DNA of 64,000 bases from Smithella sp. (GCA_049517435.1 JBEKRZ010000009.1:29925-93924), one strand, 5' to 3'; positions 1-57,208 are shown, counted from the first letter of the stretch. A program made the numbers and translations. Notes: generated from the sequence alone by a model not told the origin.

Positions 1-321
1 CGAAGGGGTAAGGTTGTATTTGATTATTTGTTCGATTTCAGCCACGGTTGACGGCCCTAAAATAACAATCGGCGCTTCGATGCCGCTTATCCTGAGCTGA
101 ACGCCTTCGTCGGCATTGGCCACTCCCAGCATTCGCGCGCCGTTTTTTAAGGCGATGTTGGAAATTTCTATGGCACCGTGCCCATAGGCATCGGCCTTGA
201 CGACCTGCATAAAATCAACTTGCGTCCCGATCAATCTTTTTATTTCTTTCAGATTACCAATAAAGTTATCAAGATCGACTTCGACCCAACTGCGATATTT
301 TTGTTCATTCTTTAATGACAT
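1..321 (-). CDS. alr: alanine racemase, N-terminal part (gene runs off the left edge)
   Basis: Absent from the ORF track because it has no stop in the window. Reverse translation from the ATG at 321..319 gives MSLKNEQKYRSWVEVDLDNFIGNLKEIKRLIGTQVDFMQVVKADAYGHGAIEISNIALKNGARMLGVANADEG... VKADAYGHG is the PLP-lysine motif of alanine racemases. Confidence 0.8.
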   Translation of the reverse strand, partial: MSLKNEQKYRSWVEVDLDNFIGNLKEIKRLIGTQVDFMQVVKADAYGHGAIEISNIALKNGARMLGVANADEGVQLRISGIEAPIVILGPSTVAEIEQIIKYNLTPS

Positions 322-701
322 ATATAATTAATCCAATAGATGATGGCTGTGGAACTGTTGAAAAACGCTCATACCCTGAAGGGCACGACGCGTCTGCTGT
401 GTTGCGCTGCAAACCGCACCGCTCGACGTATGTCTATATACGCCTCGCGATTCGGTTTTTTGCGCGCCTTGCATCTGAACATTTTTGAACAGCCCCGCTG
501 TTTCCTTATTATTTTGCTTCACGGTGTGCCTTTTCGCGTGGCTCTCAAACGCTCTTGGCCGAATATCTTTTACGATTATGCGGAAAGATTCTCAGGGTAT
601 AAATTTTTATCTCCAGCAAAATTGGCTGCTTTTGAGATAATATCAAATCGTTGATGAAAGTCAAGCCGTCTATGTTTTTCAGAAAAATCGGTAATTTATA
701 C

Positions 702-729
702 TTGAAAAAATTATTTTTTTGATTAGAAT
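702..729 (+). promoter_or_regulatory. sigma70-like promoter candidate for the 786..1136 gene
   Basis: TTGAAA (702-707), a 16-nt AT-rich spacer, then TAGAAT (724-729), about 55 nt upstream of the ATG at 786. A strong RBS GAGGAGG lies at 771-777. Confidence 0.4.
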
Positions 730-785
730 AGAAAAAATACTGGAGGGTGAATAGTTAAACCCCTCACAACGAGGAGGAAAAGCAA

Positions 786-1136
786 ATGTCGAAAGTAAAG
801 ACTGGAGATGTTCTGAGTTGTGAAGTATGCGGACTTGCCGTGATCGTGGACGAAGAGTGTGGTTGTGCCACGATTGACCTTATTTGCTGTGAAGAGCCGA
901 TGATCAATACGGGTGTGTCAAAAATAAAGCAAATACAGGCTGCAGCGGCGCCGAAAAAAAAGGCGGTCGTGAAAAAAGTAAAAGCGACAAAGAAAAAAAC
1001 ACCAGCGGCAAAAAAAGCAAAAGCGGTGGCAAAAAAGAAAGTGATCAAAAAGAAAGCTACTAAGAAAAAGGTTGTAAAAAAGACAGCGAAAAAACCTGTA
1101 AAAAAAGCCGCAAAAAAAACCACAAAAAAGAAATAA
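786..1136 (+). CDS. small protein with an N-terminal desulforedoxin-like Cys-rich domain fused to a histone H1-like Lys/Ala-rich tail
   Basis: The RBS GAGGAGG lies 8 nt upstream. Residues 7-39 (GDVLSCEVCGLAVIVDEECGCATIDLICCEEPM) follow the desulforedoxin / desulfoferrodoxin domain-I pattern GDVYKCELCG...LVCCGEDM (CxxC ... CC). The last ~65 aa contain 32 Lys in AKK/KKK repeats. Confidence 0.75.
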   Translation: MSKVKTGDVLSCEVCGLAVIVDEECGCATIDLICCEEPMINTGVSKIKQIQAAAAPKKKAVVKKVKATKKKTPAAKKAKAVAKKKVIKKKATKKKVVKKTAKKPVKKAAKKTTKKK

Positions 1137-1504
1137 TATGAACTCCTTCTACGGCAGGAGCCTGATGTTGCCTATATAACGTGAACTCTCGTGAGTGCAG
1201 CCTGCCCTCGACCTGACACGTGACCCCAAGTGACCTTCAGGTTATCGGGGGGTCGCGTACCTTCCCCGGTTGGAGCAGAGGAATTACAAGTCGCGGGATT
1301 AATTGTCTGAAAGTTAAATCTTCAATTTAATAGAGTTTCGCGATAGAAGAGGGACTCTATTAAATGTATATTTTTCGAAAATTGCCCATCTTATATAACC
1401 ATTTGCGCAAAAGCCAAGCCGGGAAACCCACCTGCGGCACGTATGTTCTAAGCTTGAAAAATTATGCGAATTCTGATTAATCTGTTTATCGAAGGATAAA
1501 CAAT

Positions 1505-4500
1505 ATGACAACGAACAATAGTCCGGATAAAAAAAACGAGGGATTGGGTTCGTCCGCTCTAAAAGTGAATTTGGAAAGGACAGCCGTAACCATAGAAATA
1601 CCGGAGCAATATGCGCCGCTGCTTGAGGTTGTGGCAGGTCATTACGGTTTGCAGAAAAAGACCCATGAACTGCTGATGGAGCTAAACCATCCTTTAGTTA
1701 ACTGGGAATATGTTCTGAAAGAGCTGAAATCCATTTCCATCGGCGATTTCTATATTTACAATAATCATCAAGATGGACGGTCCGCTCTTTCTATAATGCT
1801 GCGTATTTACTTCGACGTTATCAAATCGGCATCAAGTAGTGACGTCAAAGACAGCGCGATACACTATCTATTCGATTATATTGACACGATACTTACCCAG
1901 AGCAACGAATTTCTCCCGCGAAACTTATCCTTGTTTTCGGAGATCATCGAATCACTTATGAATATTGCGGCAGGCGATGAGATTATTTTCAAGAAATGTT
2001 CGACTTACCTCAAAAGAATCATCAAGAGCATTACAGAGAACAACATAGATATTCACGCGCCCCTGTTCGATAGTTTAGTCTACAGGATGTTTAAAGTTAC
2101 GTATCAATTCTGGCTAACCCAACCCGATCCCTTCGAGTGGTTTACCCAAGGAGGGGGAGAAACAGAGGAATCAATCAACGCGTACAGGCAATTCATTGGG
2201 CCCCTGAGCCACCAGCATCTCCAATTCCTGCTCGAAAATTTGGAGACCGTTCGCCCGGACACGCGGGAGGCAAGCGGGGATCAAATAAAAAGATACCTTG
2301 ATATGCCGGATTATTTTCAGATAGTAAACGGCTATTTGCTGGCCGCTGATCTATTGGAAAAGTCGGAAGCACATCAAGGCCGCCAGCACCTCGCGAAACT
2401 GGGCTTCTTATTTAACATAATGGATATTCCCAGTCTTGCCGATATCCATGCCAGCGCCTTGCGGGAAATCAACCATGCTCTAAACAATGTTTTCCAGGAA
2501 GAAAAAAAGGAAAACATGAACGACTTTGTGCGCAAGATATTCGGCTTTCTAAAAAAGAACAAATCCCAATATGAATTCAGCATGGCAATTTTTGATTGCA
2601 TTACGACGACGGCGAAGGAAGTTTTTGCGCAAAACAGCCATCCCCTCGTGGATACCTTTATCGATGAACTGATTGCTTACGGTTTTCAATATCCGGAGAT
2701 TAAAGGCTCAACCACGGAATGGCAGGTAAAAGTTAATCCCGCCCATATCAACAATATACGGTCGTGGCTTGAAATTATCGGGATGAAGCCCAGGTGGACA
2801 AAAAGGCTGATTTCAGCCTTGATCATCAATTTGAAAATCGGAGGGATTTTTGTTCGTGACACGGATCTCATCCAGAAAAACATTTCCGCGCTGCTCAATA
2901 CCGATATTGCGCCGGCGTACAGTCTCATAAAACAGCTCCTTAAAATTTTTCCGGTCTACTTCAGTGAAATTGGCGCCGAAGGCGAATTAAGGGATATCTC
3001 CACCAAAGTTGATGAGCTTTCTTCCCGGAACGACAAGCTTGTATATTTTTTCCGGAAGCAATCCCACGTTGAAAGCAACAGCCTGCTCGTGAAATTTATA
3101 GAGGATATTTTCCAATACTGGCGCTCTGGCGACAAGAAATTTCTCCACGTGCATATTCCCGATGAGGTATATGAGCAAGTTGTGAACCCCGGAGAATATT
3201 TCGACGGAATGCACAAAGCGTTTAAATATTTCTTTACTAAAATTAATAATGATCCCCGGAATTTTCTTGAATGGGACAAAGAAAGAGTGGGCAAAGAACT
3301 CCATCATATAAAAGGTCTTAATGACAGAGATCAGGAGCGGATCCAAATTATGATCCGGATTTACCAATTGATCTATAAAAAATACTATCCTCAACATATA
3401 GATTTATTGAAAGATTTGGAATCAGTCAATGCCTTTCCCCAAGCCGATATTGCATCTCTGAGACGCTCCTTGGAAATAAAGGATTATTACCGGAGCCTTA
3501 CGATTATCCTTAAATTTTTGTCAATATTGAAAGCAACAATTCTTTCTCCCCAAAAGACGCAGTTTTATGAAAACATATACTACAAAAGACACATTGCTGC
3601 GGGCATACCATCAATGTACGGAACCTACCATGAGAAGAAATTTGAGGCCATTGGTTTATCGTTGAGACTGGAAACCTTATCCACTATGCTTTTTGAGGAG
3701 TTGATTCAATCATTTAATCTCAAATTCATTACCAAACAAACCATTACAAAGATTCATAGATATCTTTGGCTCTACATCAGTGCCCTGGAAATTGAAGGTA
3801 TTTCTACAGAAGGTTTGGCGGCTAAAGTCAAATACGTGACGCACGCTTTGCCGGTCAAGCAGTTTTCCATAGACCAATACATAGACATCTTCCGTTTTAT
3901 CTCCAAAGATATTCAGGATATTGTTCATAATTATTACATTGACGCCCACAGTTTCAACTTGCCTGTTATTATAGGGCAGGTTTACCAGCAAAACGCTGAA
4001 GCTGATACAAAATCCGAGCAGAAAAAATATGAAAAATCCATCTATCAGCACTCGGAAAATTTTATCAGAGGGATGATATCTTCGGCCTTCGGCCTTCAGG
4101 TGTTGGACAATTTTGTTAATGCAGTCATTAAAACTCTTAACTCTGAGTCGGAAAAGTTTAAGGATAACAAACAGATTCTCAACGTCGTTATGGCCTACAA
4201 TTCGGAGTTGACAGTTTCATCCTTTTACAGAAAGAATAAAAGGTTGGATAATCAAATATTTCTCGGGAATAAGGGATATTTTCTCAAAGAGATGGTATCC
4301 TTTGGTTTTAATGTACCTCCCGGATTTATAATTACGACGGAAGTATTTAGAGGATATGATGCGGTCTATGGTTATAAGCATATCTTTAATGACCTTGCTG
4401 TCCGGGTAAACAAAGAGATAGTTGCGCTGGAGAAGATAACGGGCCGAAAATTTGGTGATCGACGCAATCCATTGCTTTTATCAGTACGAAGCGGCGCTAC

Positions 4501-5719
4501 GGTCTCCCTTCCCGGCATGATGAAATCTTTTTTAAATGTGGGCATCAACGAAACCATAGCGGAAAGTCTTAGCACAAAGGAAAACTTTCAGTGGGCGGCT
4601 TGGGACTCGTATCGCCGGTTTTTACAGTCATGGGGTATGTTCCAGGGGATGAATCGTAATTATTTCGATGCAATAATCGACGAATTCAAACAAAAACATG
4701 ACGTAGAAAGAAAGATAACGTTCCTTCCCGCCCAGATGAAACAGATTGCTCTTTCCTATAAGAAAGGAATAATGGACAATGGAATTGTGCTCAAAGATAA
4801 ACCTCTGGAACAGTTACGGCACGCCATCCTCCAGGTTTTTGACTCGTGGTATTCGGAACAGGCGGAAATCTATCGTCATCAGATGCATCTTTCCGATAAA
4901 TGGGGAACAGCCGTAATTATACAGGCGATGGTCTTTGGAAACCTTAATGAACACTCCGGATCAGGGGTTATTTTTACCCGCGAACCTAAAAGCACTTCAG
5001 CCGATGTGACCCTTTACGGGGATTTCATTTTTGGCGTTCAGGGAGACGATATTGTTTCCGGTCTGGTGGAGACGTATCCTATTTCGGAGCGGCAGCGCAT
5101 AGCGGAATGCAGATATTCAAAAATATCGCTAGAGGAAAAATTTCCGGAGATTTACGCTGAACTGGTGAGAATTTCCGAGATTCTTATTTATGAAAAAGGT
5201 TTCAACCATCAAGAGATTGAGTTTACTTTTGAAGGTCCAACCGGCGATAAATTGTATATACTGCAAACGCGGGATATGAATCCAATAAAGACAAAAAAAT
5301 GGAAGCGCTTTAAGGACAGCAATACATTGCAATCATACGTGCTGGGAACAGGTATAGGGGTGAGCGGAGGCGCTCTGTGCGGCAGAGCGGTCTATTCAGA
5401 ATCGGACATTAAACGTTTCCGTAAAGCTGAACCGGAAACGTCTCTCATTCTGGTGCGTCCCGATACTGTTCCGGATGACGTTGGAGTCCTGCTGCAAGTT
5501 GAAGGACTTCTGACTGCCAAAGGCGGTAGCACTTCACATGCCGCGGTAACAATCCCGCAACTCAACAAAGTCGGAGTTGTTGGTTTCAGTAAGCTCAAGG
5601 TTTATGAGACCGATGAATACGCAATTATAGAAGATCATAAAATTAAAGCGGGAGACTTCATCAGTATAGACGGTTGGAGCGGCACGGTCTATTCAGGACA
5701 ACATGAAAGCGAGGCTTAA
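1505..5719 (+). CDS. 1404-aa PPDK/PEP-synthase-related putative dikinase with a large novel N-terminal region, an ATP-grasp nucleotide-binding domain and a phospho-His swivel domain, but no PEP/pyruvate TIM-barrel domain
   Basis: This is one uninterrupted ORF. The C-terminal ~500 aa carry PPDK N-terminal motifs in order: GNKGYFLKEM, VPPGFIITTEVF, SVRSGATVSLPGMMKSFLNVG, WGTAVIIQAMVFGN, LYILQTRD and LLTAKGGSTSHAAV. The His codon is at 5537..5539. The ORF ends 59 aa after that His. Confidence 0.85.
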   Translation: MTTNNSPDKKNEGLGSSALKVNLERTAVTIEIPEQYAPLLEVVAGHYGLQKKTHELLMELNHPLVNWEYVLKELKSISIGDFYIYNNHQDGRSALSIMLRIYFDVIKSASSSDVKDSAIHYLFDYIDTILTQSNEFLPRNLSLFSEIIESLMNIAAGDEIIFKKCSTYLKRIIKSITENNIDIHAPLFDSLVYRMFKVTYQFWLTQPDPFEWFTQGGGETEESINAYRQFIGPLSHQHLQFLLENLETVRPDTREASGDQIKRYLDMPDYFQIVNGYLLAADLLEKSEAHQGRQHLAKLGFLFNIMDIPSLADIHASALREINHALNNVFQEEKKENMNDFVRKIFGFLKKNKSQYEFSMAIFDCITTTAKEVFAQNSHPLVDTFIDELIAYGFQYPEIKGSTTEWQVKVNPAHINNIRSWLEIIGMKPRWTKRLISALIINLKIGGIFVRDTDLIQKNISALLNTDIAPAYSLIKQLLKIFPVYFSEIGAEGELRDISTKVDELSSRNDKLVYFFRKQSHVESNSLLVKFIEDIFQYWRSGDKKFLHVHIPDEVYEQVVNPGEYFDGMHKAFKYFFTKINNDPRNFLEWDKERVGKELHHIKGLNDRDQERIQIMIRIYQLIYKKYYPQHIDLLKDLESVNAFPQADIASLRRSLEIKDYYRSLTIILKFLSILKATILSPQKTQFYENIYYKRHIAAGIPSMYGTYHEKKFEAIGLSLRLETLSTMLFEELIQSFNLKFITKQTITKIHRYLWLYISALEIEGISTEGLAAKVKYVTHALPVKQFSIDQYIDIFRFISKDIQDIVHNYYIDAHSFNLPVIIGQVYQQNAEADTKSEQKKYEKSIYQHSENFIRGMISSAFGLQVLDNFVNAVIKTLNSESEKFKDNKQILNVVMAYNSELTVSSFYRKNKRLDNQIFLGNKGYFLKEMVSFGFNVPPGFIITTEVFRGYDAVYGYKHIFNDLAVRVNKEIVALEKITGRKFGDRRNPLLLSVRSGATVSLPGMMKSFLNVGINETIAESLSTKENFQWAAWDSYRRFLQSWGMFQGMNRNYFDAIIDEFKQKHDVERKITFLPAQMKQIALSYKKGIMDNGIVLKDKPLEQLRHAILQVFDSWYSEQAEIYRHQMHLSDKWGTAVIIQAMVFGNLNEHSGSGVIFTREPKSTSADVTLYGDFIFGVQGDDIVSGLVETYPISERQRIAECRYSKISLEEKFPEIYAELVRISEILIYEKGFNHQEIEFTFEGPTGDKLYILQTRDMNPIKTKKWKRFKDSNTLQSYVLGTGIGVSGGALCGRAVYSESDIKRFRKAEPETSLILVRPDTVPDDVGVLLQVEGLLTAKGGSTSHAAVTIPQLNKVGVVGFSKLKVYETDEYAIIEDHKIKAGDFISIDGWSGTVYSGQHESEA

Positions 5720-5740
5720 TGATTGCGGAATATAAAAGTT

Positions 5741-5774
5741 TAACTCGCAGCCGCCGTTGGCGGCTGCGAGTTAA
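5741..5774. terminator. shared hairpin between convergent genes (probable bidirectional terminator)
   Basis: A perfect 15-bp stem TAACTCGCAGCCGCC / GGCGGCTGCGAGTTA encloses a GTTG loop, between the stop at 5719 (+) and the stop at 5797 (-). The flanking A/T runs are short. Confidence 0.55.
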
Positions 5775-5796
5775 AAACTAACCCTGGAACATTTTT

Positions 5797-7074
5797 TTAT
5801 AAAATGTTTTTATGAACGTAAACGGTCAGATCTCCCACCCTGTTTGTATAGCTTCCGTATTCATTGTCATACCAGCCGAATATTTTGGTATGGACAACAG
5901 GCACTTTCATTAACTTCTCGGGAAATGCCTTCATCAGTCCAGCGGGCAAGTTTGGAATATGAGAAATATCCAAATTAATAAAAGCGGTTCGTGTGTGATT
6001 AAACTGGCCCTCAATAATTACTGCCGCATCCACGCCGATAAGATCGGTGGGTACATTTTGTTCCATCGTAAATTTTATTAAGTGGTCAGGATTATTTTGG
6101 GCCGCTTTTTGGTAAATTTCGTTGACCATTTTTGTATTGATAGCCATCGCCACGCCTTGCTTGTTAATGCGCGTTTGAAAAGTAGCATTCAGAACGATCA
6201 AAGACATGGTACTGGTGGGCACTCTAATTGAATCCGCCATAAAACCGATGTGCTGTACCTCCGGAATTACCTCTACGAGGGCCTTGGCGGCGTTTGTGGA
6301 TGTCAGGATAATGTTATTCAGAATACTTCTGTTCTTTCTCAGGTCGTTTTCTCCTGCCTTGGGAACACTGTCCAATACGCTTTGAGAATTGGTAACCGCA
6401 TGAATGGTCGACATAGAGGCCGTAAGGATGGTGTTTGTTCCCTCATTTTCCAGAAGAGGCTTGATCATGTGGGCCAGTCCTGTAGTCGTGCAGGACGCAG
6501 CCGATATAAGCTGGTGTTTTTTTGGATCGAAAGCAGTATGGTTTATTCCATAAATCAAAGTAACAGCATCATCCGGCACTGACAATGCTTTGTTCTTTAT
6601 CTTGAAGGGGGAAGAGTTAATAACAACTTTTGCCCCGCCGTGTAGATGACCCCGAATAGAACCATTCTTGCTATCCGAAGCAATGGTTGGATCCTTGAAT
6701 TTTCCGGTGCAGTCCAGAACGATATCGACTCCGTATTGCCGCCAGGGAATATCAGTGGGATTTCTTGCTTCACGAAGCACTGTGACAGGTATGCCGTCAA
6801 TCAGCATCTTGCCTTTTTTTTCATCCGTAATCTGAATGAGGCGCTCTGATTTTATTCCATAGAGGAACCGGTGAAGCAACCCGTAGGTCGTATCTTTTTC
6901 AATCGCCTGGGCTATGGTATCCAGCCCCGTTCCCGCTTCCCGCCCCAGATTAACAACAATTTCCTTAAAATACTTTCTGCCGATATGGTGCCATAAAGTT
7001 AATTTTCCGATTCTTCCCAAACTGTTGATACCCAGTACCGGCGGTCTGTTTTCAAATACCTGAATTTTTGCCAT
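5797..7074 (-). CDS. divergent long-form glyceraldehyde-3-phosphate dehydrogenase family protein (425 aa)
   Basis: The RBS GGAGG lies 9 nt upstream. GAPDH hallmarks are present: GINSLGRIGK (NAD fold), SAASCTTTGLAHMIKPL (catalytic Cys), STIHAVT and WYDNEYGSY. It is about 90 aa longer than the canonical gap at 11213..12211 because of several insertions. Confidence 0.8.
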   Translation of the reverse strand: MAKIQVFENRPPVLGINSLGRIGKLTLWHHIGRKYFKEIVVNLGREAGTGLDTIAQAIEKDTTYGLLHRFLYGIKSERLIQITDEKKGKMLIDGIPVTVLREARNPTDIPWRQYGVDIVLDCTGKFKDPTIASDSKNGSIRGHLHGGAKVVINSSPFKIKNKALSVPDDAVTLIYGINHTAFDPKKHQLISAASCTTTGLAHMIKPLLENEGTNTILTASMSTIHAVTNSQSVLDSVPKAGENDLRKNRSILNNIILTSTNAAKALVEVIPEVQHIGFMADSIRVPTSTMSLIVLNATFQTRINKQGVAMAINTKMVNEIYQKAAQNNPDHLIKFTMEQNVPTDLIGVDAAVIIEGQFNHTRTAFINLDISHIPNLPAGLMKAFPEKLMKVPVVHTKIFGWYDNEYGSYTNRVGDLTVYVHKNIL

Positions 7075-7091
7075 TATAAAAATCCTCCTTT

Positions 7092-7310
7092 AAATGAGAC
7101 TCAAATATTTCGAACGTAGTGCAGTAATATTTGTTAGTCGAATCAATGACTCTCGCTGAAAACGAACAAAGTGAAGTTTGAAGCGTAAGAGGAATTGATC
7201 CCGCAAGCATAGCTTGACGGGATTATCCCCGAAGCGAAGCGAAGCGGGATCAGTGATCCAAGCTTCAGAAACCAAAATACACTGAAGCTTGTAAGTTGAA
7301 AAATCCCGTA
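7092..7310. repeat. mosaic intergenic hairpin-repeat block (copy R1)
   Basis: The block is a chain of short hairpin modules that are also seen at 9755-10005, 12282-12532, 20958-21240 and 33841-34083. Examples are AAATGAGACTC at the start, the hairpin 7102-7133 with loop GAACGTAGTGCA, GGGATTATCCCC...GGGAT, and CAAGCTTCAG(7259-7268)/CTGAAGCTTG(7282-7291). Confidence 0.8.
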
Positions 7311-7656
7311 AACAGGAAGTAATATGTCTATTGGTTTTTTCTTTGATTGATAAAAAAATGCAGGGACACCCTGCTGAAGTATGGTGAAGTTAACACTATT
7401 TAAATACGGTTTTGTGGTGACCGGGACCATAAAATATCTCCCTTAAAAGGTCACAATCTTTCTACAGGAAAGGCCGTTAAAAGTCAATAGCCGAAGTGTA
7501 AAGTATTCATCTGTCACCGTCTTATCGCTTATATAACTAATTTATTTTTAAGTATAAATGATTTATTTTACGGCTAGGACAATTTATTAATCAAAAGATG
7601 AAAAAAGCTTATTCACGCTTGCCCGAATTTCTTGCTCATATTGGGAATGTGGTGTA

Positions 7657-7983
7657 ATATTTGATTATACCAATTCGCTTGTAAGTTACCACCCTGAAGG
7701 TGGTAATTGCCGGTAAGGTAAAGATTTGATTTATTATGCGCTCCCCTCCCTGCGTGATGCGCATCCGGTCTTTGGCTAACTTTGTTGGCATAGCCTGCCC
7801 CGGCGCAGGCCGGGGTCGGCTTCCTCAACGTATAACTTGGAGGTCACGCGTGTAAAATACGCCTCGTTGCCTCTGCCTTGCCCCACTGGAGCGGGACAGT
7901 TCAACTAACGAATTCCAGTTTACTGCGTAACTGTAATTCGAGTTTCACTGCCGCCTCGTTATCCTTTGAAAGCGAAATGGTGT
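7657..7983. repeat. MITE-like mosaic element with imperfect terminal inverted repeats (long copy)
   Basis: The ends are ATACCAATTCGC (7657-7668) and GCGAAATGGTGT (7972-7983), whose reverse complement matches the left end at 10 of 12 positions. Internal blocks TCTTTGGCTAACTTTGTTGGC, CTTCCTCAACGTAT, AAATACGCCTCGTT and ATCCTTTGAAAGCGAAAT recur in the same order in the reverse complement of 59108-59211. The first ~50 nt recur at 12282. Confidence 0.7.
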
Positions 7984-8006
7984 TAGTCTGAAGGAAGGAG
8001 AATTAT

Positions 8007-8891
8007 ATGAGACTAAATTTATTGCGAACGGCGCTGGTATTATTTATTTTATTTACAGCTTCCGGTGTTTGGGCGGAAAGCTCCGTGTGGGTGGCAAAAT
8101 CTTCCAAGGGCAATGTTTATCTTGCCGGGTCTTTCCATATACTGAGGGCGTCTGATTATCCTCTGCCTGCCGAATTCCTTACAGCTTATAAGGACTCCCG
8201 TAAAATTATATTTGAAGTCCCGCCTGGCGAAACGGAAAGTCCGGAATATATGGGAAAGTTTTTAAGCTTGGCAATTTACAATGACGGCACGACTCTTAAA
8301 GAGCATATTACAACCGCGGCTTACGCCAAAGCGGAAAACTTCTGTAAAGAACGGAATTATCCGCTGGAGCAATACCAATTTTTTAAGCCGACTTTTTTTG
8401 TGATGACGCTTACAGTATCGGAAATGAACAAAATCGGCGCCGACCCCCAGAAAGGGATTGATTATTTCTTCAAAGATAAAGCTATGCAGGATGGAAAAGC
8501 GACCGGAAGTTTGGAAACGATGGATCAACAACTCGCTCTTCTTACTTCAATGGACGCGAGCTTGGGAAGCGACCAAATTCTTGAATCTATCGAGGAACTC
8601 AAACAAATTGAAGTAATGCTGGGTGAACTTCTGGCTGTCTGGAGAAAAGGAGATGAGGCCAAAATGGAAGAACTCTACATTAAAGACCTAAAGCTTTATT
8701 CCAAATTATATCAGACCCTGATTGTTGATCGAAATAATAAATGGGTGAGGAATATCGAAAGCTACCTCAATGGTTCGGGAAACACCATGGTGGTCGTTGG
8801 TGCTGCTCATCTTATCGGCGTGGACGGTTTGGTTAATTTGCTGCGCAAACGCGGTTACAAAGTGGTTAAATCGCAAGGGGGAGGCCGATGA
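8007..8891 (+). CDS. TraB/GumN family protein, secreted
   Basis: The RBS is GAAGGAGA. A signal peptide is present (MRLNLLRTALVLFILFTASGVWA). The family-typical N-terminal LAGSFHIL and C-terminal VVVGAAHLIGVDGLVNLLRKRGYKV are both present. Confidence 0.7.
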   Translation: MRLNLLRTALVLFILFTASGVWAESSVWVAKSSKGNVYLAGSFHILRASDYPLPAEFLTAYKDSRKIIFEVPPGETESPEYMGKFLSLAIYNDGTTLKEHITTAAYAKAENFCKERNYPLEQYQFFKPTFFVMTLTVSEMNKIGADPQKGIDYFFKDKAMQDGKATGSLETMDQQLALLTSMDASLGSDQILESIEELKQIEVMLGELLAVWRKGDEAKMEELYIKDLKLYSKLYQTLIVDRNNKWVRNIESYLNGSGNTMVVVGAAHLIGVDGLVNLLRKRGYKVVKSQGGGR

Positions 8892-8976: not shown

Positions 8977-9732
8977 TTATTTTTTCCAGGAGATGTTTTT
9001 GATTATGCCAAGAAATCCATCCGCTTTTAAGGATGCTCCGCCCACCAGTGCGCCGTCGATATCTTCCATAGCAATTAAGTCGCCGATATTGTCTTTGGTG
9101 ACGCTGCCGCCATAAAGTATACGAATGTTGTCAGACGTACTGCCGTACAAATCTTTTAATATGCCCCGGATAAATTGGTGAACTTCTTCGGCCTCAATGG
9201 GTGTGGCTACTTTGCCAGTTCCTATCGCCCAGACCGGTTCGTAAGCAATGACGACATTATCAATTTTTTCCACGCCGATTAATCCCTGTTTTACTTGCCT
9301 GTCGATCACTGACCGGGTAATCCCTTTTACTCTTTCTTCGTCGGTTTCTCCCACGCACATGATGGGCGTCAATCCCGCGGTCAATGCTTTCTTGACTTTC
9401 AAATTCACATCTTGATCTTGTTCGTGAAAATATTTCCGGCGCTCGGAATGGCCGATAATCACGTAGGCGCAGCCGATATCTTTGAGCATACCCGGTGATA
9501 TCTCTCCCGTGAATGCTCCCTTGTCTTCGTAATACATGTTTTGCGCGGCCAGAGATACATTCGAGCCCTTGATGGTTTCACCAACACTGAACAAGGCGGT
9601 AAAAGGCGGCGCTATAACGACTTCTCCATTTTTAATGACAGCCGCGCCTTCCTTGACAGCTTTGGCCAAGGCAATTGATTCGGCAATAGTGTTGTGCATT
9701 TTCCAGTTACCGGCAACAATCCATTCTCTCAT
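8977..9732 (-). CDS. tpiA: triose-phosphate isomerase
   Basis: MREWIVAGNWKMHN..., IIGHSERR and AYEPVWAIGTG are present. I place the start at the ATG at 9732 (RBS AGGGAG upstream). The track start at 9795 lies inside the repeat block. Confidence 0.9.
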   Translation of the reverse strand: MREWIVAGNWKMHNTIAESIALAKAVKEGAAVIKNGEVVIAPPFTALFSVGETIKGSNVSLAAQNMYYEDKGAFTGEISPGMLKDIGCAYVIIGHSERRKYFHEQDQDVNLKVKKALTAGLTPIMCVGETDEERVKGITRSVIDRQVKQGLIGVEKIDNVVIAYEPVWAIGTGKVATPIEAEEVHQFIRGILKDLYGSTSDNIRILYGGSVTKDNIGDLIAMEDIDGALVGGASLKADGFLGIIKNISWKK

Positions 9733-9754
9733 TTTTTTCTCCCTTATTGTGAAA

Positions 9755-10005
9755 CTCCAATTTAATGAGACCCAAGCTTCAGAAACAGAGTGCATAACCT
9801 AAAGGTCATCTGCGACTGAAGCTTGCAGGTCGTAGTGAGTCCCAAAGTTCAGAAGCGTAGCGCACTGAAATTTATTGGACGAACTATCAAATAGCCAAAG
9901 GCTATTTGAAATTATCCCACGTGCGAAGCTAAGTGGGACTATATATGAGACTCCAACTTCAAAAGTGCAGCTTGCTGCGAAATGTTTCCAAAGCTTGCTT
10001 TGGGT
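9755..10005. repeat. mosaic hairpin-repeat block filling the pgk-tpiA spacer (copy R3)
   Basis: It starts ACTCCAATTTAATGAGAC and ends TTCCAAAGCTTGCTTTGGGTT, the same termini as 33841-34083. It contains hairpins CAAGCTTCAG(9772-9781)/CTGAAGCTTG(9815-9824), 9845-9872 (loop AAGCGTAGCGCA), AAATAGCC-AAA-GGCTATTT (9901-9919) and TCCCAC...GTGGGA (9927-9950). Confidence 0.85.
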
Positions 10006-11193
10006 TTATACCCGTGATTTTTCCAGCGCGGCAATTCCGGGCAGGGTTTTTCCTTCCAGCAATTCCAGAAATGCGCCGCCGCCGGTGGAGATATAAGACA
10101 TCTTCGCGCTCTGACCGGCTTTATGAATGGCCGTATCCGTGTCACCGCCGCCGATAATTGAAAGCGCCCCGGAATTCGCTACGGCAACAGCCAGCGCAAA
10201 AGTTCCTTTGCTGAAAGGAGCAAGTTCAAACATGCCCAGAGGGCCGTTCCAGACGATAGTTTTAACACCTTGTAGAGCGTCGGAGAATAAAGAAATTGTT
10301 GCCGGTCCGATATCCAATCCTATCTCATCTTCAGGAATTTCTTTTATGCCGCAGACTTTTACTTCAGCATCAGCCGTTGGACTTTTGGCAATCACGGCAT
10401 CCACCGGCAATAAAAACTGCACATTTTTCTGCTTGGCTTTATCGGTAATCTTTCGCGCCAACTCCAGCATATCGGGCTCGCACAGCGATTTGCCGATGCC
10501 GTAACCCGCCGCTTTTAAGAAAGTGAAGGCCATGCCGCCGCCGACAATAAATTTATCCACTTTTTCGATGAGATTTTCCAGTACGCCGATTTTATCGGAA
10601 ACCTTTGCTCCGCCGATAATGGCGCAAAGCGGCCGCGCCGGATTTCCCATGGCCTTGTTAAAATATTCGATTTCATTTTTCAGCAGGAAACCAGCGGCGC
10701 ATGTTTTTACAAATTCCGTGATTGCCGAATTTGACGCAGCCGCTCTATGCGAAACGGCAAAGGCGTCATCAATATATATATCGCAAAGAGAGGCGAGTAT
10801 TTTGGCAAATTCCGGATCGTTTTTGTCTTCTCCCGGATAAAATCTCAGGTTTTCCAGAAGGACAATATCTCCGGCTTTCATGCTGTTGACGGTTTGAACG
10901 GCTTTTTCTCCCACACAATCATCGATAAATACTATATCTTTTTTCAGAAGGCCGGAAAGAATTTTCACTACCGGTTTAAGAGACATTTCATCAACTCTTT
11001 TGCCTTTCGGTCTGCCCAGATGAGAAGCGATAATTAATTTCGCTCCTTTTTCCAGCGCATAATTTATGGTTGGAATGTGCGCCCGCACACGTGTATCGTC
11101 TGTGACATTGCCAGACTTATCCATGGGTACATTGAAATCCACCCGCAGAAAAACTTTTTTATCCTTCATCTCTATTTGATCTATGTACTTCAT
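10006..11193 (-). CDS. pgk: phosphoglycerate kinase
   Basis: This 395-aa ORF has the typical PGK N-terminus (KVFLRVDFNVP, ASHLGRPKG) and C-terminal STGGGAFLE. Confidence 0.95.
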   Translation of the reverse strand: MKYIDQIEMKDKKVFLRVDFNVPMDKSGNVTDDTRVRAHIPTINYALEKGAKLIIASHLGRPKGKRVDEMSLKPVVKILSGLLKKDIVFIDDCVGEKAVQTVNSMKAGDIVLLENLRFYPGEDKNDPEFAKILASLCDIYIDDAFAVSHRAAASNSAITEFVKTCAAGFLLKNEIEYFNKAMGNPARPLCAIIGGAKVSDKIGVLENLIEKVDKFIVGGGMAFTFLKAAGYGIGKSLCEPDMLELARKITDKAKQKNVQFLLPVDAVIAKSPTADAEVKVCGIKEIPEDEIGLDIGPATISLFSDALQGVKTIVWNGPLGMFELAPFSKGTFALAVAVANSGALSIIGGGDTDTAIHKAGQSAKMSYISTGGGAFLELLEGKTLPGIAALEKSRV

Positions 11194-11212
11194 CTTCCCT
11201 TCTTTACCTTTT

Positions 11213-12211
11213 CTATTTCATTATAAAAGAGATTAGCTCCAGCATCCTGTTGGAAAAACCCCATTCATTGTCATACCAGGAGAGCACCTTGACCATCTTG
11301 CCGCCGATGACATATGTATTCGGCATATCAACGATGGAGGAGTGTTTGTTGTCATTGAAATCGCGGGAAACCAGTTCCTCTTCCGAACACATAAGAATCC
11401 CTTTCATGGCTCCTTTTGCATATTCTCTGAACTTGGCGTTAATTTCATCCCTGTTCGTACTCTTCGAGAGCGTTGCTACAAAATCGACGAGAGAAACATT
11501 AGGCACAGGCACACGGATAGCCAGTCCATCGAGTTTTCCCTTCATTTCCGGTATAACTTCCGCGATAGCCTTGGCGGCTCCGGTTGTGGTAGGTATCATG
11601 GAAAGGGCGGCGGCGCGGGCCCTTCTCAAATCCTTGTGCGGCTCATCCTGAACAACCTGATCGTTGGTATATGCATGAATTGTCGTCATCAGACCGTATT
11701 CAACGCCGAATTCCTCATGCAGTATTTTGACAATCGGCGCGAGGCAATTTGTGGTGCATGATCCCATGGAAATAATATTATGCTTGGTCTTGTCGTAATC
11801 CTCCTGATTGACACCGAGGACAAACGTGATATCCGGATTTTTAGCCGGAGCGGAAATGACGACTTTTTTTGCTCCCGCCTCAAGATGTTTTCCGGCGCCA
11901 GCCTTGTCCGTGAATCTGCCGGTGCTTTCCATGACAACATCGATATCCAGGTCTTTCCAGGGCAGGGTTTCCGGTTCCCTGATGGAGGATGTTTTAATTT
12001 CCTTGCCGTCCACGATTATGGAGTTATTTCCGACCTTTACTTCGGCATCCAGCGTTCCATGAGTTGAATCATATTTAAGCAGATGAGCCAGAGTTTTCGC
12101 ATCGGCAAGATCATTAACTGCCACGAATTCCACATCTTTGTTTTTGTATCCGGCTCTAAACACAAGCCGGCCAATTCTTCCAAATCCGTTAATAGCAATT
12201 TTTACTGGCAT
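11213..12211 (-). CDS. gap: glyceraldehyde-3-phosphate dehydrogenase (canonical type I)
   Basis: INGFGRIGR, SCTTNCLAP and WYDNEWGFS are present. The RBS is AAGGAGG. It is the first gene of a gap-pgk-tpiA arrangement on the minus strand. Confidence 0.95.
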   Translation of the reverse strand: MPVKIAINGFGRIGRLVFRAGYKNKDVEFVAVNDLADAKTLAHLLKYDSTHGTLDAEVKVGNNSIIVDGKEIKTSSIREPETLPWKDLDIDVVMESTGRFTDKAGAGKHLEAGAKKVVISAPAKNPDITFVLGVNQEDYDKTKHNIISMGSCTTNCLAPIVKILHEEFGVEYGLMTTIHAYTNDQVVQDEPHKDLRRARAAALSMIPTTTGAAKAIAEVIPEMKGKLDGLAIRVPVPNVSLVDFVATLSKSTNRDEINAKFREYAKGAMKGILMCSEEELVSRDFNDNKHSSIVDMPNTYVIGGKMVKVLSWYDNEWGFSNRMLELISFIMK

Positions 12212-16666: not shown

Positions 16667-16670
16667 AATA

Positions 16671-16708
16671 AAGTCCGATTCTCATTAAAAGGGAATCGGA
16701 CTTTTTTA
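16671..16708 (+). terminator. rho-independent terminator after acs
   Basis: AAGTCCGATTC ... GAATCGGACTT forms an 11-bp stem followed by a T-run. Confidence 0.8.
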
Positions 16709-16788
16709 TAAAACCTACAAAGAAAAAATAAAAATGCAAGTCTATCTTTTTCCGAAGAATGACATGCAGAAGAAGGAGGTTGGACAAA

Positions 16789-17559: not shown

Positions 17560-17582
17560 TTTAAAAGCGGAGGAATTGAAAA

Positions 17583-18554: not shown

Positions 18555-18570
18555 AAATTTATTTTTAAAA

Positions 18571-18612
18571 AGCTTCCGGTAGCAATGTAATAATTCACCG
18601 CTACCGGAAGCT
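18571..18612 (+). promoter_or_regulatory. strong intercistronic hairpin between etfA and the Fe-S oxidoreductase gene
   Basis: A perfect 13-bp stem AGCTTCCGGTAGC / GCTACCGGAAGCT encloses a 16-nt loop. No T-run follows, so this is not a classical terminator. Confidence 0.5.
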
Positions 18613-18733
18613 GAATATAAACAAATTAACATTCAAGCATCTGCGTAAAAAATTTTATATTCAAGTCAATAAAGACTTGAGGGAAAAATTAATTTAAAAG
18701 TATATCAAAAACCCTCAATATTTCGGAGGATAA

Positions 18734-20884: not shown

Positions 20885-20913
20885 GTAATTATTTCCAATA
20901 GATTAATAAAAAA

Positions 20914-20946
20914 AGCCCGATCTGAATGAAGATTGGGCTTTTTTTG
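20914..20946 (+). terminator. rho-independent terminator
   Basis: AGCCCGATC / GATTGGGCT forms a stem with one G-U pair, followed by TTTTTTT. Confidence 0.8.
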
Positions 20947-20957
20947 TAAAAAATCAC

Positions 20958-21240: not shown

Positions 21241-21315
21241 AAATTTGTTTTAATTTTTCTCGCAACAGAGTATAAGGCTTTTTATAAGAAAATAAGAAAG
21301 GGAGGGTAGTAAATA

Positions 21316-23004: not shown

Positions 23005-23015
23005 TAAAACGGGAG

Positions 23016-23050
23016 TACGGAGAAGTTAAGTATCGCTTCTCCGTATTTTT
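23016..23050 (+). terminator. rho-independent terminator or attenuator between fadD and the crotonase gene
   Basis: TACGGAGAAG / CTTCTCCGTA forms a 10-bp stem followed by TTTTT. The next gene starts 19 nt later. Confidence 0.7.
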
Positions 23051-23068
23051 ATAAGAAAGAAAGGGATA

Positions 23069-29465: not shown

Positions 29466-29475
29466 AGGATTGAAC

Positions 29476-54081: not shown

Positions 54082-54442
54082 ATGTTTATCAAGTCCTTAT
54101 AGTATTTTTGAACAAGTCTAGTTGCGTTATTGCAAAAGGAATAATATCATTACAGCATTAGCTCGCTACCAAATTCAAGGTTATGTGGTCTTCTTACATA
54201 TGTTTTTAATACCGCTTGTTTTCCTGTCTAAAAATAAAAAATCATATCAAATTTAATATCTAAATATTCTTGGTTTTTATACCGGGAAAAAACAAGGTAA
54301 GATATTAAAATAATTTATTATTTTAATATAGTTGCATTTAAAGGCATTTATACAATTTTATCTTGACAATAAGCATAGTCTTATGCCGATATAACGGCAT
54401 AAAAATTTACTGTATTAATCAAGGAGGTTGAAAAGCGAAGTC

Positions 54443-57208
54443 ATGGCTAAATATGTTTACTCTTTCTCGGAAGGATATGGAAAAAGCAAGAATCTTTTAG
54501 GAGGCAAGGGCGTTGGACTTGCGGAAATGGCGCATCTTAAAATTCCTATTCCTCCTGGTTTTACTATTACAACGGAAGTTTGCACGGCTTTCTATGAGAA
54601 TAAAGGCCGTTATCTTCAAGGATTAAAAGAACAGGTTTTAAAAGCGCTGCAAAAGATGGAGAAGGATTCGGGGATGAAATTCGGTGATCAGAAAAATCCT
54701 CTGCTTTGTTCAGCCCGTTCCGGAGCTCGCAGCAGTATGCCCGGCATGATGGAAACAGTTCTGAATATCGGTCTTACCTCCAAGACTATTGTTGGAATGA
54801 TTGAAAAAACAAAAAACGCCCGCTTCGTTTGGGATTCTTACCGTCGTTTAATTCAGATGTATTCGGATGTTGTTATGGAAAAGGCCGAAGGCATCGAACC
54901 GGCCGAGGGCATGGGTGTGCGCCAGCAGCTGGAGCGGGAACTGGCGGCTATGAAAGCACGCCGCAATGCGAAAACGGATGTTGATCTTACGGAGCAGGAC
55001 CTTGCCGACCTTGCTGAAATTTACAAAGCCAAAGTCCAAGCTGTTATCGGCAAACCATTCCCCGATGATGCCAATGAGCAGTTATGGGGCGCGATTGGCG
55101 CTGTCTTTAAAAGCTGGAATGGTAAACGTGCTGTTTCTTACCGCAGAATCGAAGGCATTCCCGATGATTGGGGCACTGCGGTCAATGTGCAGGCGATGGT
55201 ATTCGGCAACATGGGCGATAATTCGGCCACTGGTGTAGCCTTCACCCGTAATCCGGCCACTGGCGAAAACAAATTTTACGGCGAGTGGCTGCCCAATGCG
55301 CAGGGCGAAGATGTTGTCGCGGGAATCCGCACGCCCAATCCGATAAATGAAGAAACCCGCCAGGTAGACGATACCGAAGGACATCCCAGCTTGGAAAAAG
55401 CCATGCCTAAAGCCTACGCTCAGATTAAGGGTATTCGCAATAAGCTGGAAGCTCACTTCAAGGATATGCAGGATCTTGAATTTACCATTCAGGACGGCCG
55501 TGTCTGGATGCTTCAGACACGCAACGGCAAACGCAACGGTCCCGCCGCTGTTCGCATGGCCGTAGAAATGTACAAAAAGAAAATGATCAGCGCCGCAGAA
55601 GCGGTCTCTAGAGTAACACCTGCCCAGTTCGATGAAATGCTTCATCCGATGGTTGATCCGAAGGCTGAAGCGTCGGGAGATTTTCTGGTGAAAGGTCTGC
55701 CTGCCGGTCCCGGCGGAGCCGTTGGACAGGTTGTATTCACGGCGGAAGATGCTGTGAATTTGAAGAAAGAAGGCAAGAATGTAATTCTAGTACGTGAGGA
55801 GACTAATCCCGAAGATGTCGAAGGTATGCGCGCGGCTCAGGGTATTCTTACGGCGCGCGGCGGCATGACCTCGCACGCCGCTCTTGTGGCCCGTGGCTGG
55901 GGCAAGTGCTGTATTGTCGGCGCCGGCGCCCTGCACGTTGATATGCAACAAAAGACAATGACAGTTGCCGGAAAAACAGTACGCGAAGGTGAAATTATTA
56001 CACTCAATGGAACCAAGGGACGCGCCTATAGGGGAGCCTTGCCGATGATCAGTGGCGCCGAGGATGATAAAAATTTCGCGACTTTCATGAAACTCTGCGA
56101 TTCTATACGGCGTCTGAAAATCCGCACAAACGCCGAAACACCGAAGGATGCCGCCAAGGCCGTTCAGTTCGGCGCTGAAGGCATAGGCCTGTTCCGCACC
56201 GAGCATATGTTCTACGGCGAGAACAGCGAAAAGCCGTTGTTCTATCTGCGCAAGATGATTCTCTCCGATAATTTGGACCAGCGTCGCGCGGCATTGAATG
56301 ATCTATTCCCGTTTGTTAAAAACGACATTAAAAAGACAATGGAAGTCATGGCCGGAAGACCGGTGACCATTCGCCTTTTGGATCCGCCTCTGCATGAATT
56401 CGTGCCGGAGAATCCAGAAGAACGTCAGCGTCTTGCTGAAAGCTTGGGCATTTCAATAGAAAAACTCAACAGCCGGGCGGAAAATCTGCACGAGACAAAT
56501 CCGATGATGGGACATCGCGGTGTGCGTCTGGGCATTACCTATCCCGAAGTAAGCGAAATGCAGATTCGCGCCATTCTTGAAGGAGCGGCGGAGCTTATAA
56601 AGGAAGGCAAAAAAGCGCTTCCCGAAATCATGATTCCGGTCGTCTGCGATGTGGCCGAATTTAAAAATCAGGCGGATATAGTCAAGAAGGTTTATCCTGA
56701 AATTTGCTCCAAATATGGCCTTAAGAAAATACCGTATATGGTGGGAACAATGATTGAGATTCCCCGTGCAGCTCTGCTTGCTGATAAGATTGCCAAAGAA
56801 GCGGAATTTTTCAGCTACGGAACAAACGACCTCACTCAGATGACCTACGGCTTCAGCCGCGACGATGTCGGTGCGTTTGTGCCCGAATACGTGGAAAAGA
56901 AAATTATTCCGGTTGATCCCTTCCAGATTCTCGATCAGGACGGTGTCGGCCAGTTAATCGAATTTGGCATTGAGCGGGGACGCAAAGCCCGCAAGGATTT
57001 AAAGGTTGGTATCTGCGGTGAACATGGCGGCGAGCCTTCCAGTGTTATGTTCTGTCACCGCGTGGGCATGAATTATGTTAGTTGTTCGCCCTATCGTGTT
57101 CCGATAGCTCGTCTGGCTGCCGCTCAGGCCGTGGTAAACGAGAAGAAGAGTTCGCCAAAGCCAAAGGCAAAAGCAAAGCCGAAGGCAAAGGCGAAGCCAC
57201 GCAAATAA
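54443..57208 (+). CDS. ppdK: pyruvate, phosphate dikinase with a C-terminal Lys/Ala/Pro-rich tail
   Basis: MAKYVYSFSEG, GGKGVGLAEM, ARSGARSSMPGMMETVLNIG, TARGGMTSHAALVARG, GLFRTEHMF, SYGTNDLTQ and SCSPYRVP are present. The tail KKSSPKPKAKAKPKAKAKPRK lies at 57136-57205. I prefer the ATG at 54443 over the track TTG at 54428. Confidence 0.95.
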   Translation: MAKYVYSFSEGYGKSKNLLGGKGVGLAEMAHLKIPIPPGFTITTEVCTAFYENKGRYLQGLKEQVLKALQKMEKDSGMKFGDQKNPLLCSARSGARSSMPGMMETVLNIGLTSKTIVGMIEKTKNARFVWDSYRRLIQMYSDVVMEKAEGIEPAEGMGVRQQLERELAAMKARRNAKTDVDLTEQDLADLAEIYKAKVQAVIGKPFPDDANEQLWGAIGAVFKSWNGKRAVSYRRIEGIPDDWGTAVNVQAMVFGNMGDNSATGVAFTRNPATGENKFYGEWLPNAQGEDVVAGIRTPNPINEETRQVDDTEGHPSLEKAMPKAYAQIKGIRNKLEAHFKDMQDLEFTIQDGRVWMLQTRNGKRNGPAAVRMAVEMYKKKMISAAEAVSRVTPAQFDEMLHPMVDPKAEASGDFLVKGLPAGPGGAVGQVVFTAEDAVNLKKEGKNVILVREETNPEDVEGMRAAQGILTARGGMTSHAALVARGWGKCCIVGAGALHVDMQQKTMTVAGKTVREGEIITLNGTKGRAYRGALPMISGAEDDKNFATFMKLCDSIRRLKIRTNAETPKDAAKAVQFGAEGIGLFRTEHMFYGENSEKPLFYLRKMILSDNLDQRRAALNDLFPFVKNDIKKTMEVMAGRPVTIRLLDPPLHEFVPENPEERQRLAESLGISIEKLNSRAENLHETNPMMGHRGVRLGITYPEVSEMQIRAILEGAAELIKEGKKALPEIMIPVVCDVAEFKNQADIVKKVYPEICSKYGLKKIPYMVGTMIEIPRAALLADKIAKEAEFFSYGTNDLTQMTYGFSRDDVGAFVPEYVEKKIIPVDPFQILDQDGVGQLIEFGIERGRKARKDLKVGICGEHGGEPSSVMFCHRVGMNYVSCSPYRVPIARLAAAQAVVNEKKSSPKPKAKAKPKAKAKPRK

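Follow-up and report, generated by a model that had tools for sequence, protein, structure and literature searches.

Pyruvate, phosphate dikinase (PPDK; EC 2.7.9.1) combines an ATP-grasp nucleotide-binding domain, a swivelling phospho-His domain and a TIM barrel (PF02896) that binds phosphoenolpyruvate (PEP) or pyruvate, as in the Clostridium symbiosum enzyme (1KBL). We analyzed a 64,000-nucleotide stretch of DNA from Smithella sp. (GCA_049517435.1 JBEKRZ010000009.1:29925-93924; the window), in which the gene at 1505..5719 (plus strand), here termed X for both gene and protein, encodes the first two of these modules in the same order as PPDK. X lacks the barrel and has instead an unrelated, helical N-terminal domain of 905 residues; in contrast to PPDK, the His domain forms the C-terminal end of X and is tethered through a single linker, ~30 residues shorter. 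We estimate a probability of about 45% that X is an active PPDK-derived dikinase that phosphorylates a three-carbon metabolite linked to glyceraldehyde-3-phosphate dehydrogenase (GAPDH), with conversion of 3-phosphoglycerate (3-PG) to 1,3-bisphosphoglycerate (1,3-BPG) as the favored reaction. Residue numbers are those of X unless another protein is named.

A PPDK truncated after the His domain is known from Mycobacterium tuberculosis. VadK (Rv1127c) autophosphorylates on the equivalent His, interacts with metabolic enzymes and regulates those of the methylcitrate cycle, so that a truncated ATP-grasp/His module can work without the PEP domain (PMC13400623). Like X, VadK retains the PPDK-derived ATP-grasp and His domains and has lost the PEP domain (PMC13400623). 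VadK, however, has ~490 residues (~490–534 in proteins of the NF004531 type) and no added domain, whereas X has 905 additional residues and a genomic link to GAPDH. X scored 299 bits against NF004531 (cut-off 456), and the residues that would serve autophosphorylation of the swivel His are present. Against the PPDK equivalog TIGR01828 it scored 372 bits (cut-off 843), matching model positions 13–335 only.

Rifampin phosphotransferase and the PpsA-like kinases (phenylphosphate synthase, hydroxyphenylethanone kinase, PigC/HapC) resemble X in having an ATP-grasp domain, a family-specific acceptor domain and a C-terminal swivel His. They belong to the PEP-synthase branch and their acceptor domain is central, whereas X belongs to the PPDK branch and its acceptor candidate is N-terminal and of unrelated fold; X scored 39.6 bits against NF041857 (cut-off 999), and the PEP-synthase models were also far below their cut-offs. 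Alpha-glucan, water dikinase carries carbohydrate-binding modules, and its His domain comes before the nucleotide-binding domain, whereas X has no match to such a module and its ATP-grasp domain comes first. Enzyme I of the phosphotransferase system (PTS), with an HPr-binding subdomain and a PEP barrel, shares only PF00391 with X, which is without PF02896 and PF05524 and has an ATP-grasp domain.

A kinase together with a GAPDH-fold reductase is the classical acyl-phosphate pairing, as in phosphoglycerate kinase (PGK)/GAPDH, Ask/Asd, ArgB/ArgC and ProB/ProA. In these pairs, as in X and its neighbor GapL described below, a kinase gene is paired with a gene for a GAPDH-fold, Cys-dependent dehydrogenase. 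The known kinases of such pairs are ADP-forming and unrelated to X in fold; the likeness is one of functional analogy only, and that X makes an acyl phosphate for the dehydrogenase to reduce is a proposal.

By these sequence comparisons, X, which would work in the manner of the PEP-utilizer/dikinase superfamily, fits none of the named dikinase or PEP-utilizer families tested (PPDK, VadK, rifampin phosphotransferase/PpsA-like, glucan, water dikinase and Enzyme I). What appears to be new is the combination of a known phosphotransfer machine with an acceptor domain of apparently new fold and a specific new genomic partnership.

Domain organization of X

X is a single open reading frame (ORF) of 1404 codons, as the sequence-only reading of this stretch had stated. 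Its start codon is backed by the conservation of M1 and the following N-terminus in alignments and by GAAGGA 9 nt upstream. No riboswitch or leader RNA upstream of X was matched in Rfam at E ≤1 within 1..8000. The gene and its parts, all on the plus strand, are as follows.

1505..5719 (+): X, whole gene; single ORF with an ATG start, 1404 residues, a three-module dikinase-like protein
1505..2641 (+): residues 1–379, helical, poorly conserved accessory region
2642..4219 (+): residues 380–905, conserved core of the N-terminal domain, apparently of novel fold; putative acceptor/catalytic domain
2843..3079 (+): residues 447–525, motifs GGxFxxDTDLFQ, FPVYFxEIGAEGxLRD and FLRKQxHVESN, with invariant D452, R496, D503, R517, K518 and H521
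3566..3631 (+): residues 688–709, beta-hairpin with IYxKRHIAxGIPSMYGxY and invariant K694, H696 and S703
4220..5275 (+): residues 906–1257, PPDK-type ATP-grasp nucleotide-binding domain (PF01326; TIGR01828 positions 13–335; PDB PPDK residues 17–338)
5276..5341 (+): residues 1258–1279, short linker, ~30 residues shorter than that of the window PPDK (BLASTP gap)
5342..5716 (+): residues 1280–1404, phospho-His swivel (PEP-utilizers mobile) domain, running to the C-terminus of the protein; aligns to PPDK 389–512
5537..5539 (+): His1345, codon CAT, predicted phospho-carrier His in GGSTSHAAV

Pfam matched PPDK_N at residues 965–1189 (E 1.6e-31) and the PEP-utilizers mobile domain (PF00391) at residues 1314–1393 (E 8e-13). 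The window also encodes a genuine PPDK (54428..57208, 926 residues) with all three Pfam domains. Residues 906–1404 of X aligned with residues 17–536 of this PPDK at 31% identity (BLASTP, E 3e-70), and the six motif pairs from which a motif-by-motif parallel had first been drawn all fell into register; by alignment, the correspondence is far beyond chance. Among solved structures, the C. symbiosum PPDK entries were the best match (X residues 918–1402 vs. PPDK 17–512, E 1e-71). This alignment stopped where the His domain of PPDK ends (residue ~512), and no match to the PEP-utilizers_C barrel (PF02896) was found by Pfam in the whole protein, in agreement with the predicted absence of the PEP/pyruvate barrel. 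The CAT codon of His1345 lies where it had been placed; 59 residues follow, and the ORF closes with the His domain.

Catalytic residues of the dikinase module

The C. symbiosum PPDK residues that we take to be catalytic were traced in X: K22, R92, G101, D321/E323, Q335 and R337 correspond to K923, R995, G1004, E1237/E1239, Q1254 and R1256, and T453-S-H455 corresponds to T1343-S-H1345. Degeneracy of the His or ATP-grasp residues had been considered beforehand as the mark of a non-catalytic protein; every residue checked is intact, including His1345. In a set of 41 full-length family members sharing 26–56% identity (the distant set), the PPDK-equivalent catalytic positions are kept in 39–41 members, and position 1345 is His in 40 of the 41. 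In a separate Myxococcota subfamily, ~35 of the 37 full-length proteins keep the same positions. Judged by these residues, the dikinase module of X looks functional. Since the domains are homologous to those of PPDK, come in the same order and keep the residues checked, a swivelling phospho-His mechanism with ATP + Pi ↔ AMP + PPi (pyrophosphate) would be expected in X.

The N-terminal region

Residues 1–905 were searched by sequence and by fold. Pfam searches with the entire protein and with three pieces yielded, for this region, sub-threshold noise only (RsbR_N at E 0.01–0.04, Methyltransf_7, Rota_NS53); NCBIfam gave no match, and a 39-sequence profile against all PDB sequences gave nothing below E 0.1. 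The AlphaFold2 model of residues 1–905, built on a 61-sequence alignment, is confident (predicted local distance difference test, pLDDT, 88; predicted template modelling score, pTM, 0.82), and that of the core alone, residues 380–905, more so (pLDDT 93, pTM 0.91). The model of residues 1–905 is almost all helix, with ~45 helices and one beta-hairpin (strands 688–695 and 702–709 by DSSP on the models), as expected for a region that had been read as largely helical. In Foldseek searches against the PDB neither model had a match at E ≤1e-3: the whole region gave only karyopherin-type or solenoid noise (template modelling score, TM, ≤0.19), and the best hit to the core had E 0.08 (TM ≤0.29). Thus, the region that the sequence-only reading had left unrecognised has no counterpart among characterised domains by sequence or by fold in these searches, and the modelled core of residues ~380–905 is apparently a novel fold with no PDB neighbor.

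Conservation within the family is uneven. Among the distant members, identity is 39% over residues 381–730, 45% in the ATP-grasp domain and 40% in the His domain, and just 19–26% over residues 1–380 and 731–905 (~19–22% over residues 1–379). In family alignments, ~20 core positions are invariant Asp, Glu, Arg, Lys, His, Ser or Tyr. The invariant or near-invariant residues are H414, D452, D454, E492, R496, D503, D510, R517, K518, H521, E523, K626, Y627, E689, K694, R695, H696, S703, Y705, Y708, E710, R721, E851, R855 and D868. Such a set suggests the make-up of a catalytic site for a metal and an anionic substrate, not of a scaffold, and the 905 N-terminal residues are clearly no spacer. Because the region matches no known domain, is constantly fused to the dikinase module and has invariant charged residues of its own, it may be the acceptor domain; by analogy with rifampin phosphotransferase, the data fit an acceptor/catalytic domain served by the swivelling phospho-His.

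Family size and distribution

A HMMER scan with residues 1–905 as query, against 1.84 billion representatives (clusters at 50% identity), matched 597 clusters at E ≤1e-3 and 203 at E ≤1e-30. Full-length relatives have 1335–1540 residues, those compared over the whole gene 1349–1540, and some relatives are without the first ~200. In a scan that took a single genome for each GTDB species, and whose counts are lower bounds, at least 585 X loci or species genomes were confirmed, in Desulfobacterota, Nitrospirota, Acidobacteriota, Riflebacteria and Myxococcota. Among the loci listed are Syntrophales/Smithella, Syntrophorhabdia, Desulfobacterales, Desulfobulbia, Syntrophobacterales, Thermodesulfobacteriales, Thermodesulfovibrionales, Acidobacteriota/Aminicenantes, Riflebacteria and Myxococcota. 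All three modules (N-domain, PPDK_N and mobile His domain) are present in each of the distant relatives checked, and across phyla the family has one fixed architecture.

Stand-alone N-domain proteins were considered and rejected: the ‘short’ matches of 830–861 residues look like truncated gene calls, and an 830-residue protein on a Syntrophales chromosome (L001, 2325–4817, plus strand), with no Pfam match, is unrelated to the N-domain (BLASTP E 0.2). The Myxococcota subfamily (loci L165–L167) has an extra N-terminal hemerythrin domain of ~150 residues. The idea that these fused proteins are inactive as enzymes and that their N-domain acts on its own was also rejected, since His is replaced by Tyr only in P0156 and P0459 and ~35 others keep all catalytic residues. 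P0156 and P0459 keep every invariant residue of the N-terminal core and may be a pseudo-dikinase offshoot. The C-terminus of P0132 is aberrant and has the look of a frameshift.

Relatives of X are named ‘pyruvate, phosphate dikinase’, ‘PEP-utilizing enzyme’ or ‘PEP/pyruvate-binding domain-containing protein’ in databases. These names are misleading, because the PEP domain is missing. Literature searches found no published description of the family.

Gene neighborhood and the GAPDH partner

In the window, X converges on gapL, and a canonical gap-pgk-tpi operon lies ~3 kb beyond.

5797..7074 (–): gapL, 425-residue divergent ‘long’ GAPDH, conserved partner of X (Pfam Gp_dh_N and Gp_dh_C)
8977..12211 (–): canonical gap-pgk-tpi operon (gap 11213–12211, pgk 10006–11193, tpi 8977–9795)
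5739..5775 (no strand assigned): hairpin with a 17-bp stem between the convergent X and gapL, bidirectional terminator-like

All ORFs flanking 84 related X loci were clustered, and GAPDH was the sole widely shared neighbor. Of these loci, 57 had enough flanking sequence to be informative; a GAPDH-family gene, usually the divergent long form, lies within 2 kb of X in 46 of the 57, and within 500 nt in 37. The arrangement differs between lineages.

Syntrophales, Syntrophorhabdia and Acidobacteriota: long GAPDH convergent with X
Desulfobacterales, Thermodesulfovibrionales and others: long GAPDH directly downstream of X, same strand, 24–378 nt
Desulfobulbia and Myxococcota: canonical ~335-residue gap directly upstream of X, same strand, 59–250 nt

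Because the arrangement varies by lineage, the linkage is more than inherited synteny. Gene orders include ptsN-rapZ-EIIA(Man)-GNAT-gap-X-gapL-pgk-tpi-secG (L048) and X-gapL-pgk-tpi-secG (L050 and L065), and in the hemerythrin-fused Myxococcota members X and gapL form a two-gene operon (gaps of 46 and 21 nt) in otherwise unrelated contexts. In the reciprocal view, X was present in 26 of 35 informative metagenome loci fetched with the long GAPDH, nearly always immediately upstream and on the same strand. The distribution and neighborhood analysis that had been proposed for this architecture thus returned a recurrent GAPDH neighbor.

By alignment, GapL is a relative of type-I GAPDH with ~90 residues of insertions. 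It scored 289 bits against TIGR01534 (cut-off 367), below the equivalog threshold, and no solved structure of a long-form GAPDH was found in the PDB. C149, H176, T179, R231, T208, R194 and R197 are kept in 56 of 56 long forms, and R195 is Lys in 53. Asp32, which in GAPDH excludes the 2′-phosphate of NADP, is lost in all 56 long forms and kept in 17 of 17 neighboring short GAPDHs. Since the catalytic and phosphate-site residues are kept and Asp32 is lost, GapL should still be a phosphorylating glyceraldehyde 3-phosphate (G3P)/1,3-BPG enzyme and is likely NADP(H)-capable, which in turn would indicate an anabolic role.

The other neighbors of X are minor and lineage-restricted: glgA (4/57), aldehyde dehydrogenase (ALDH; 5/57), an rpoN-ptsN-rapZ-EIIA(Man) cluster and sensor kinases. 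A GT5 glycogen/starch synthase gene (~530 residues) stands beside gap-X in L064, L083, L084, L081, L052 and L057 (Desulfobulbia, Myxococcota and Desulfobacterales). In L043, L044 and L047 (Acidobacteriota), an ALDH-family gene of ~530–570 codons directly precedes X in the same orientation; it could encode a GapN-like non-phosphorylating G3P dehydrogenase. In L048 (156–1905), L069 (4486–9369), L079 and L054, lptB-rpoN-hpf-ptsN-rapZ-EIIA(Man) runs into GNAT-(gap)-X on the same strand. In some Desulfuromonadia, genes for HPr and Enzyme I occupy the corresponding position of the rpoN-ptsN cluster; no HPr/NPr ORF was found next to X in these four loci. A small GNAT acetyltransferase recurs in gap operons, as gapL-GNAT-pgk-tpi or GNAT-(gap)-X (L048 1902–2342, L069 9448–10107, L139 8213–8668, L118, L128 and L132), and may hint that glycolytic enzymes are controlled by acetylation.

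Other features of the window

The stem of the hairpin between X and gapL is perfect and is flanked by T-runs on both strands, with the look of a shared terminator. A TraB/PrgY/GumN family protein (8007–8891, plus strand; cluster c16, in six loci) lies between gapL and the tpi end of gap-pgk-tpi. A 95-residue ORF upstream of gapL (7143..7430) was discarded for its spurious-looking composition and lack of database matches. Upstream of X, a 116-residue protein (786–1136, plus strand) has a Cys-rich N-terminus (CEVCG...ECGC...LICC) followed by a Lys/Ala-rich, histone-tail-like C-terminus, with no Pfam or NCBIfam match. The N-terminus of a 482-residue protein (12617–14065, minus strand) weakly matches the Desulfovibrio-type homotrimeric porin family of the outer membrane, NF033939 (57 bits, below the cut-off).

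Discussion

A functional tie of X to GAPDH and the lower Embden-Meyerhof-Parnas pathway is highly probable, and it is likely, on the conserved residues, that X is an active dikinase with a novel acceptor domain. The following account of phosphotransfer by X, with its AMP and PPi stoichiometry, its acceptor and its flux direction, is inferred from the domain anatomy and gene linkage. The ATP-grasp domain would phosphorylate His1345 at the expense of ATP, probably in a reaction that also takes up Pi and releases AMP and PPi, like that of PPDK. The phospho-His domain, on its one short linker, would then swing to the N-terminal core (residues ~380–905), which would replace the PEP/pyruvate TIM barrel of PPDK as the second active site. 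Because the GAPDH gene linkage recurs across phyla, the acceptor would be tied to GAPDH and lower glycolysis/gluconeogenesis; it is most likely a three-carbon intermediate common to GAPDH, with 3-PG as the most economical candidate. Conversion of 3-PG to 1,3-BPG is favored because a kinase with a GAPDH-fold reductase is the acyl-phosphate pairing. The acyl phosphate would be passed to, or taken from, GapL, which is probably NADP(H)-compatible.

Such a route would be a two-ATP-equivalent bypass of PGK, as PPDK and PEP synthase are around pyruvate kinase. Textbook free energies are –49 kJ/mol for 1,3-BPG, –46 kJ/mol for ATP → AMP + PPi and –19 kJ/mol for PPi. From these values, 3-PG + ATP + Pi → 1,3-BPG + AMP + PPi would be at ~+4 kJ/mol under standard conditions and at ~–15 kJ/mol when PPi hydrolysis is included, when compared with ~+19 kJ/mol for PGK toward 1,3-BPG. 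The benefit to low-energy, gluconeogenic anaerobes rich in AMP and PPi would be gluconeogenesis at low energy charge; in the opposite direction, ATP would be recovered from AMP + PPi. At 14693–23851 and 26025–32005, the window encodes an AMP-forming acetyl-CoA synthetase, an acyl-CoA ligase, EtfB/EtfA, a membrane FeS/CCG oxidoreductase, enoyl-CoA hydratase, thiolase and a cofactor-independent phosphoglycerate mutase (iPGM). With AMP-forming ligases, EtfAB, beta-oxidation enzymes and PPDK in the window, the host is taken to be a syntrophic fatty-acid oxidizer that is gluconeogenic and rich in AMP and PPi, which fits the proposal for X.

The narrower claims are held less firmly. That X catalyzes 3-PG + ATP + Pi ↔ 1,3-BPG + AMP + PPi is a tentative suggestion from sequence and context, with the odds against it. 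Equally doubtful is that X and GapL together form an unrecognised PGK bypass; X would then act, on a new fold, as a ‘3-phosphoglycerate, phosphate dikinase’ linked to PPi and would channel the acyl phosphate to a dedicated GAPDH of NADP(H) type.

Several observations weigh against a 3-PG dikinase working with GAPDH. (i) 1,3-BPG can be made without X, because PGK is present and in some cases shares its operon. (ii) In 9 of the 35 gapL loci X is absent and the genes form gapL-GNAT-pgk-tpi operons, from which it follows that GapL is a working glycolytic/gluconeogenic GAPDH that does not strictly require X. (iii) No GAPDH gene is nearby in 11 of the 57 informative X loci; with (ii), the pairing is strong but non-obligate. 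(iv) In Syntrophales, including the window, X and gapL are convergent and not co-transcribed. (v) The hemerythrin sensor domain of some members, and the PTS-Ntr/RapZ, sensor kinase or glgA genes that adjoin X at some loci, fit regulation or another substrate equally well. (vi) In one small lineage (P0156 and P0459) the catalytic His is replaced by Tyr and the R92-equivalent Arg by Gly, with the N-terminal core intact.

The main rival, which we regard as rather improbable, is a VadK-like regulatory kinase: X would autophosphorylate on His1345 and control GapL or other gap-operon enzymes, either by phosphorylating these proteins or by binding that depends on phosphorylation, with the N-terminal domain as a target-binding, signal-integrating platform. 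VadK, which has no PEP domain, autophosphorylates and interacts with metabolic enzymes (PMC13400623), but it works without a 900-residue extra domain. Regulation would account for the hemerythrin fusion in the Myxococcota subfamily, for the PAS histidine-kinase, GGDEF, RapZ/PTS-Ntr or GNAT neighbors at some loci, and for the ~90 extra residues of GapL, which lie in surface-type insertions. The N-terminal core, however, carries many invariant charged residues and is conserved across phyla like an enzyme active site, and a dedicated regulator would not usually keep ~40% identity over 1400 residues from phylum to phylum. The whole-chain Foldseek matches are solenoid/karyopherin-like, a type typical of interaction scaffolds, but they are insignificant (TM ≤0.19).

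We likewise give a low probability to a different acceptor: glycerate, glyceraldehyde, dihydroxyacetone, pyruvate (on a non-homologous PEP-forming domain) or a glycogen-type glucan, which would make X a bacterial counterpart of glucan, water dikinase. The domain anatomy argues for this as it does for 3-PG, and the acceptors of the PEP-utilizer superfamily are very diverse (rifampin, phenols, glucans). glgA (GT5 glycogen synthase) is directly upstream of gap-X in L064, L083, L084, L081 and L052, and ALDH is directly upstream of X in Acidobacteriota, but the GAPDH linkage (46/57) is far above that of glgA (4/57) or ALDH (5/57). Also against a different acceptor are the lack of a match to a carbohydrate-binding module in X by Pfam, the genuine PPDK already in the window, and the residues for a phosphorylated three-carbon substrate that GapL keeps.

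Very improbable is an ATP-driven analogue of PTS Enzyme I, in which the phospho-His of X would pass its phosphoryl group to an EIIA-type protein, NPr or HPr of the PTS-Ntr, with ATP/AMP/PPi in place of PEP/pyruvate. The His domain of X is homologous to that of Enzyme I (PF00391), and X directly follows lptB-rpoN-hpf-ptsN-rapZ-EIIA(Man)-GNAT on the same strand in L048, L069, L079 and L054. This arrangement, however, is confined to ~4 loci of two lineages, no HPr/NPr ORF stands beside X there, and both the 900-residue domain and the GAPDH linkage would be left unexplained. A non-catalytic relic, in which a decayed PPDK is fused to a structural protein, is scarcely credible: it would suit the small P0156/P0459 lineage, but the catalytic residues are kept in essentially all other members, in five phyla, and the family is large and length-conserved.

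The lower part of glycolysis and gluconeogenesis is generally taken to be fully known; the occurrence of X in gap-pgk-tpi operons implies that a reaction there, or a layer of control, has been missed. X is large, strongly conserved and enzyme-like, and occurs in hundreds of anaerobe species. PPDK-type labels on the family are wrong in domain content and would mislead models of metabolism in syntrophs and sulfate reducers. With its confident model, apparently new fold and evident candidate active site, the N-terminal core is well suited to structural work and enzymology. The family is widespread in environmentally important anaerobes, mis-annotated, directly testable and, by its gene linkage, placed at the core of central metabolism. 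If the favored reaction is true, energy-starved organisms rich in AMP and PPi would push carbon uphill through the PGK/GAPDH step, and X would add a new core reaction to glycolysis/gluconeogenesis in sulfate reducers, syntrophs and other low-energy anaerobes.

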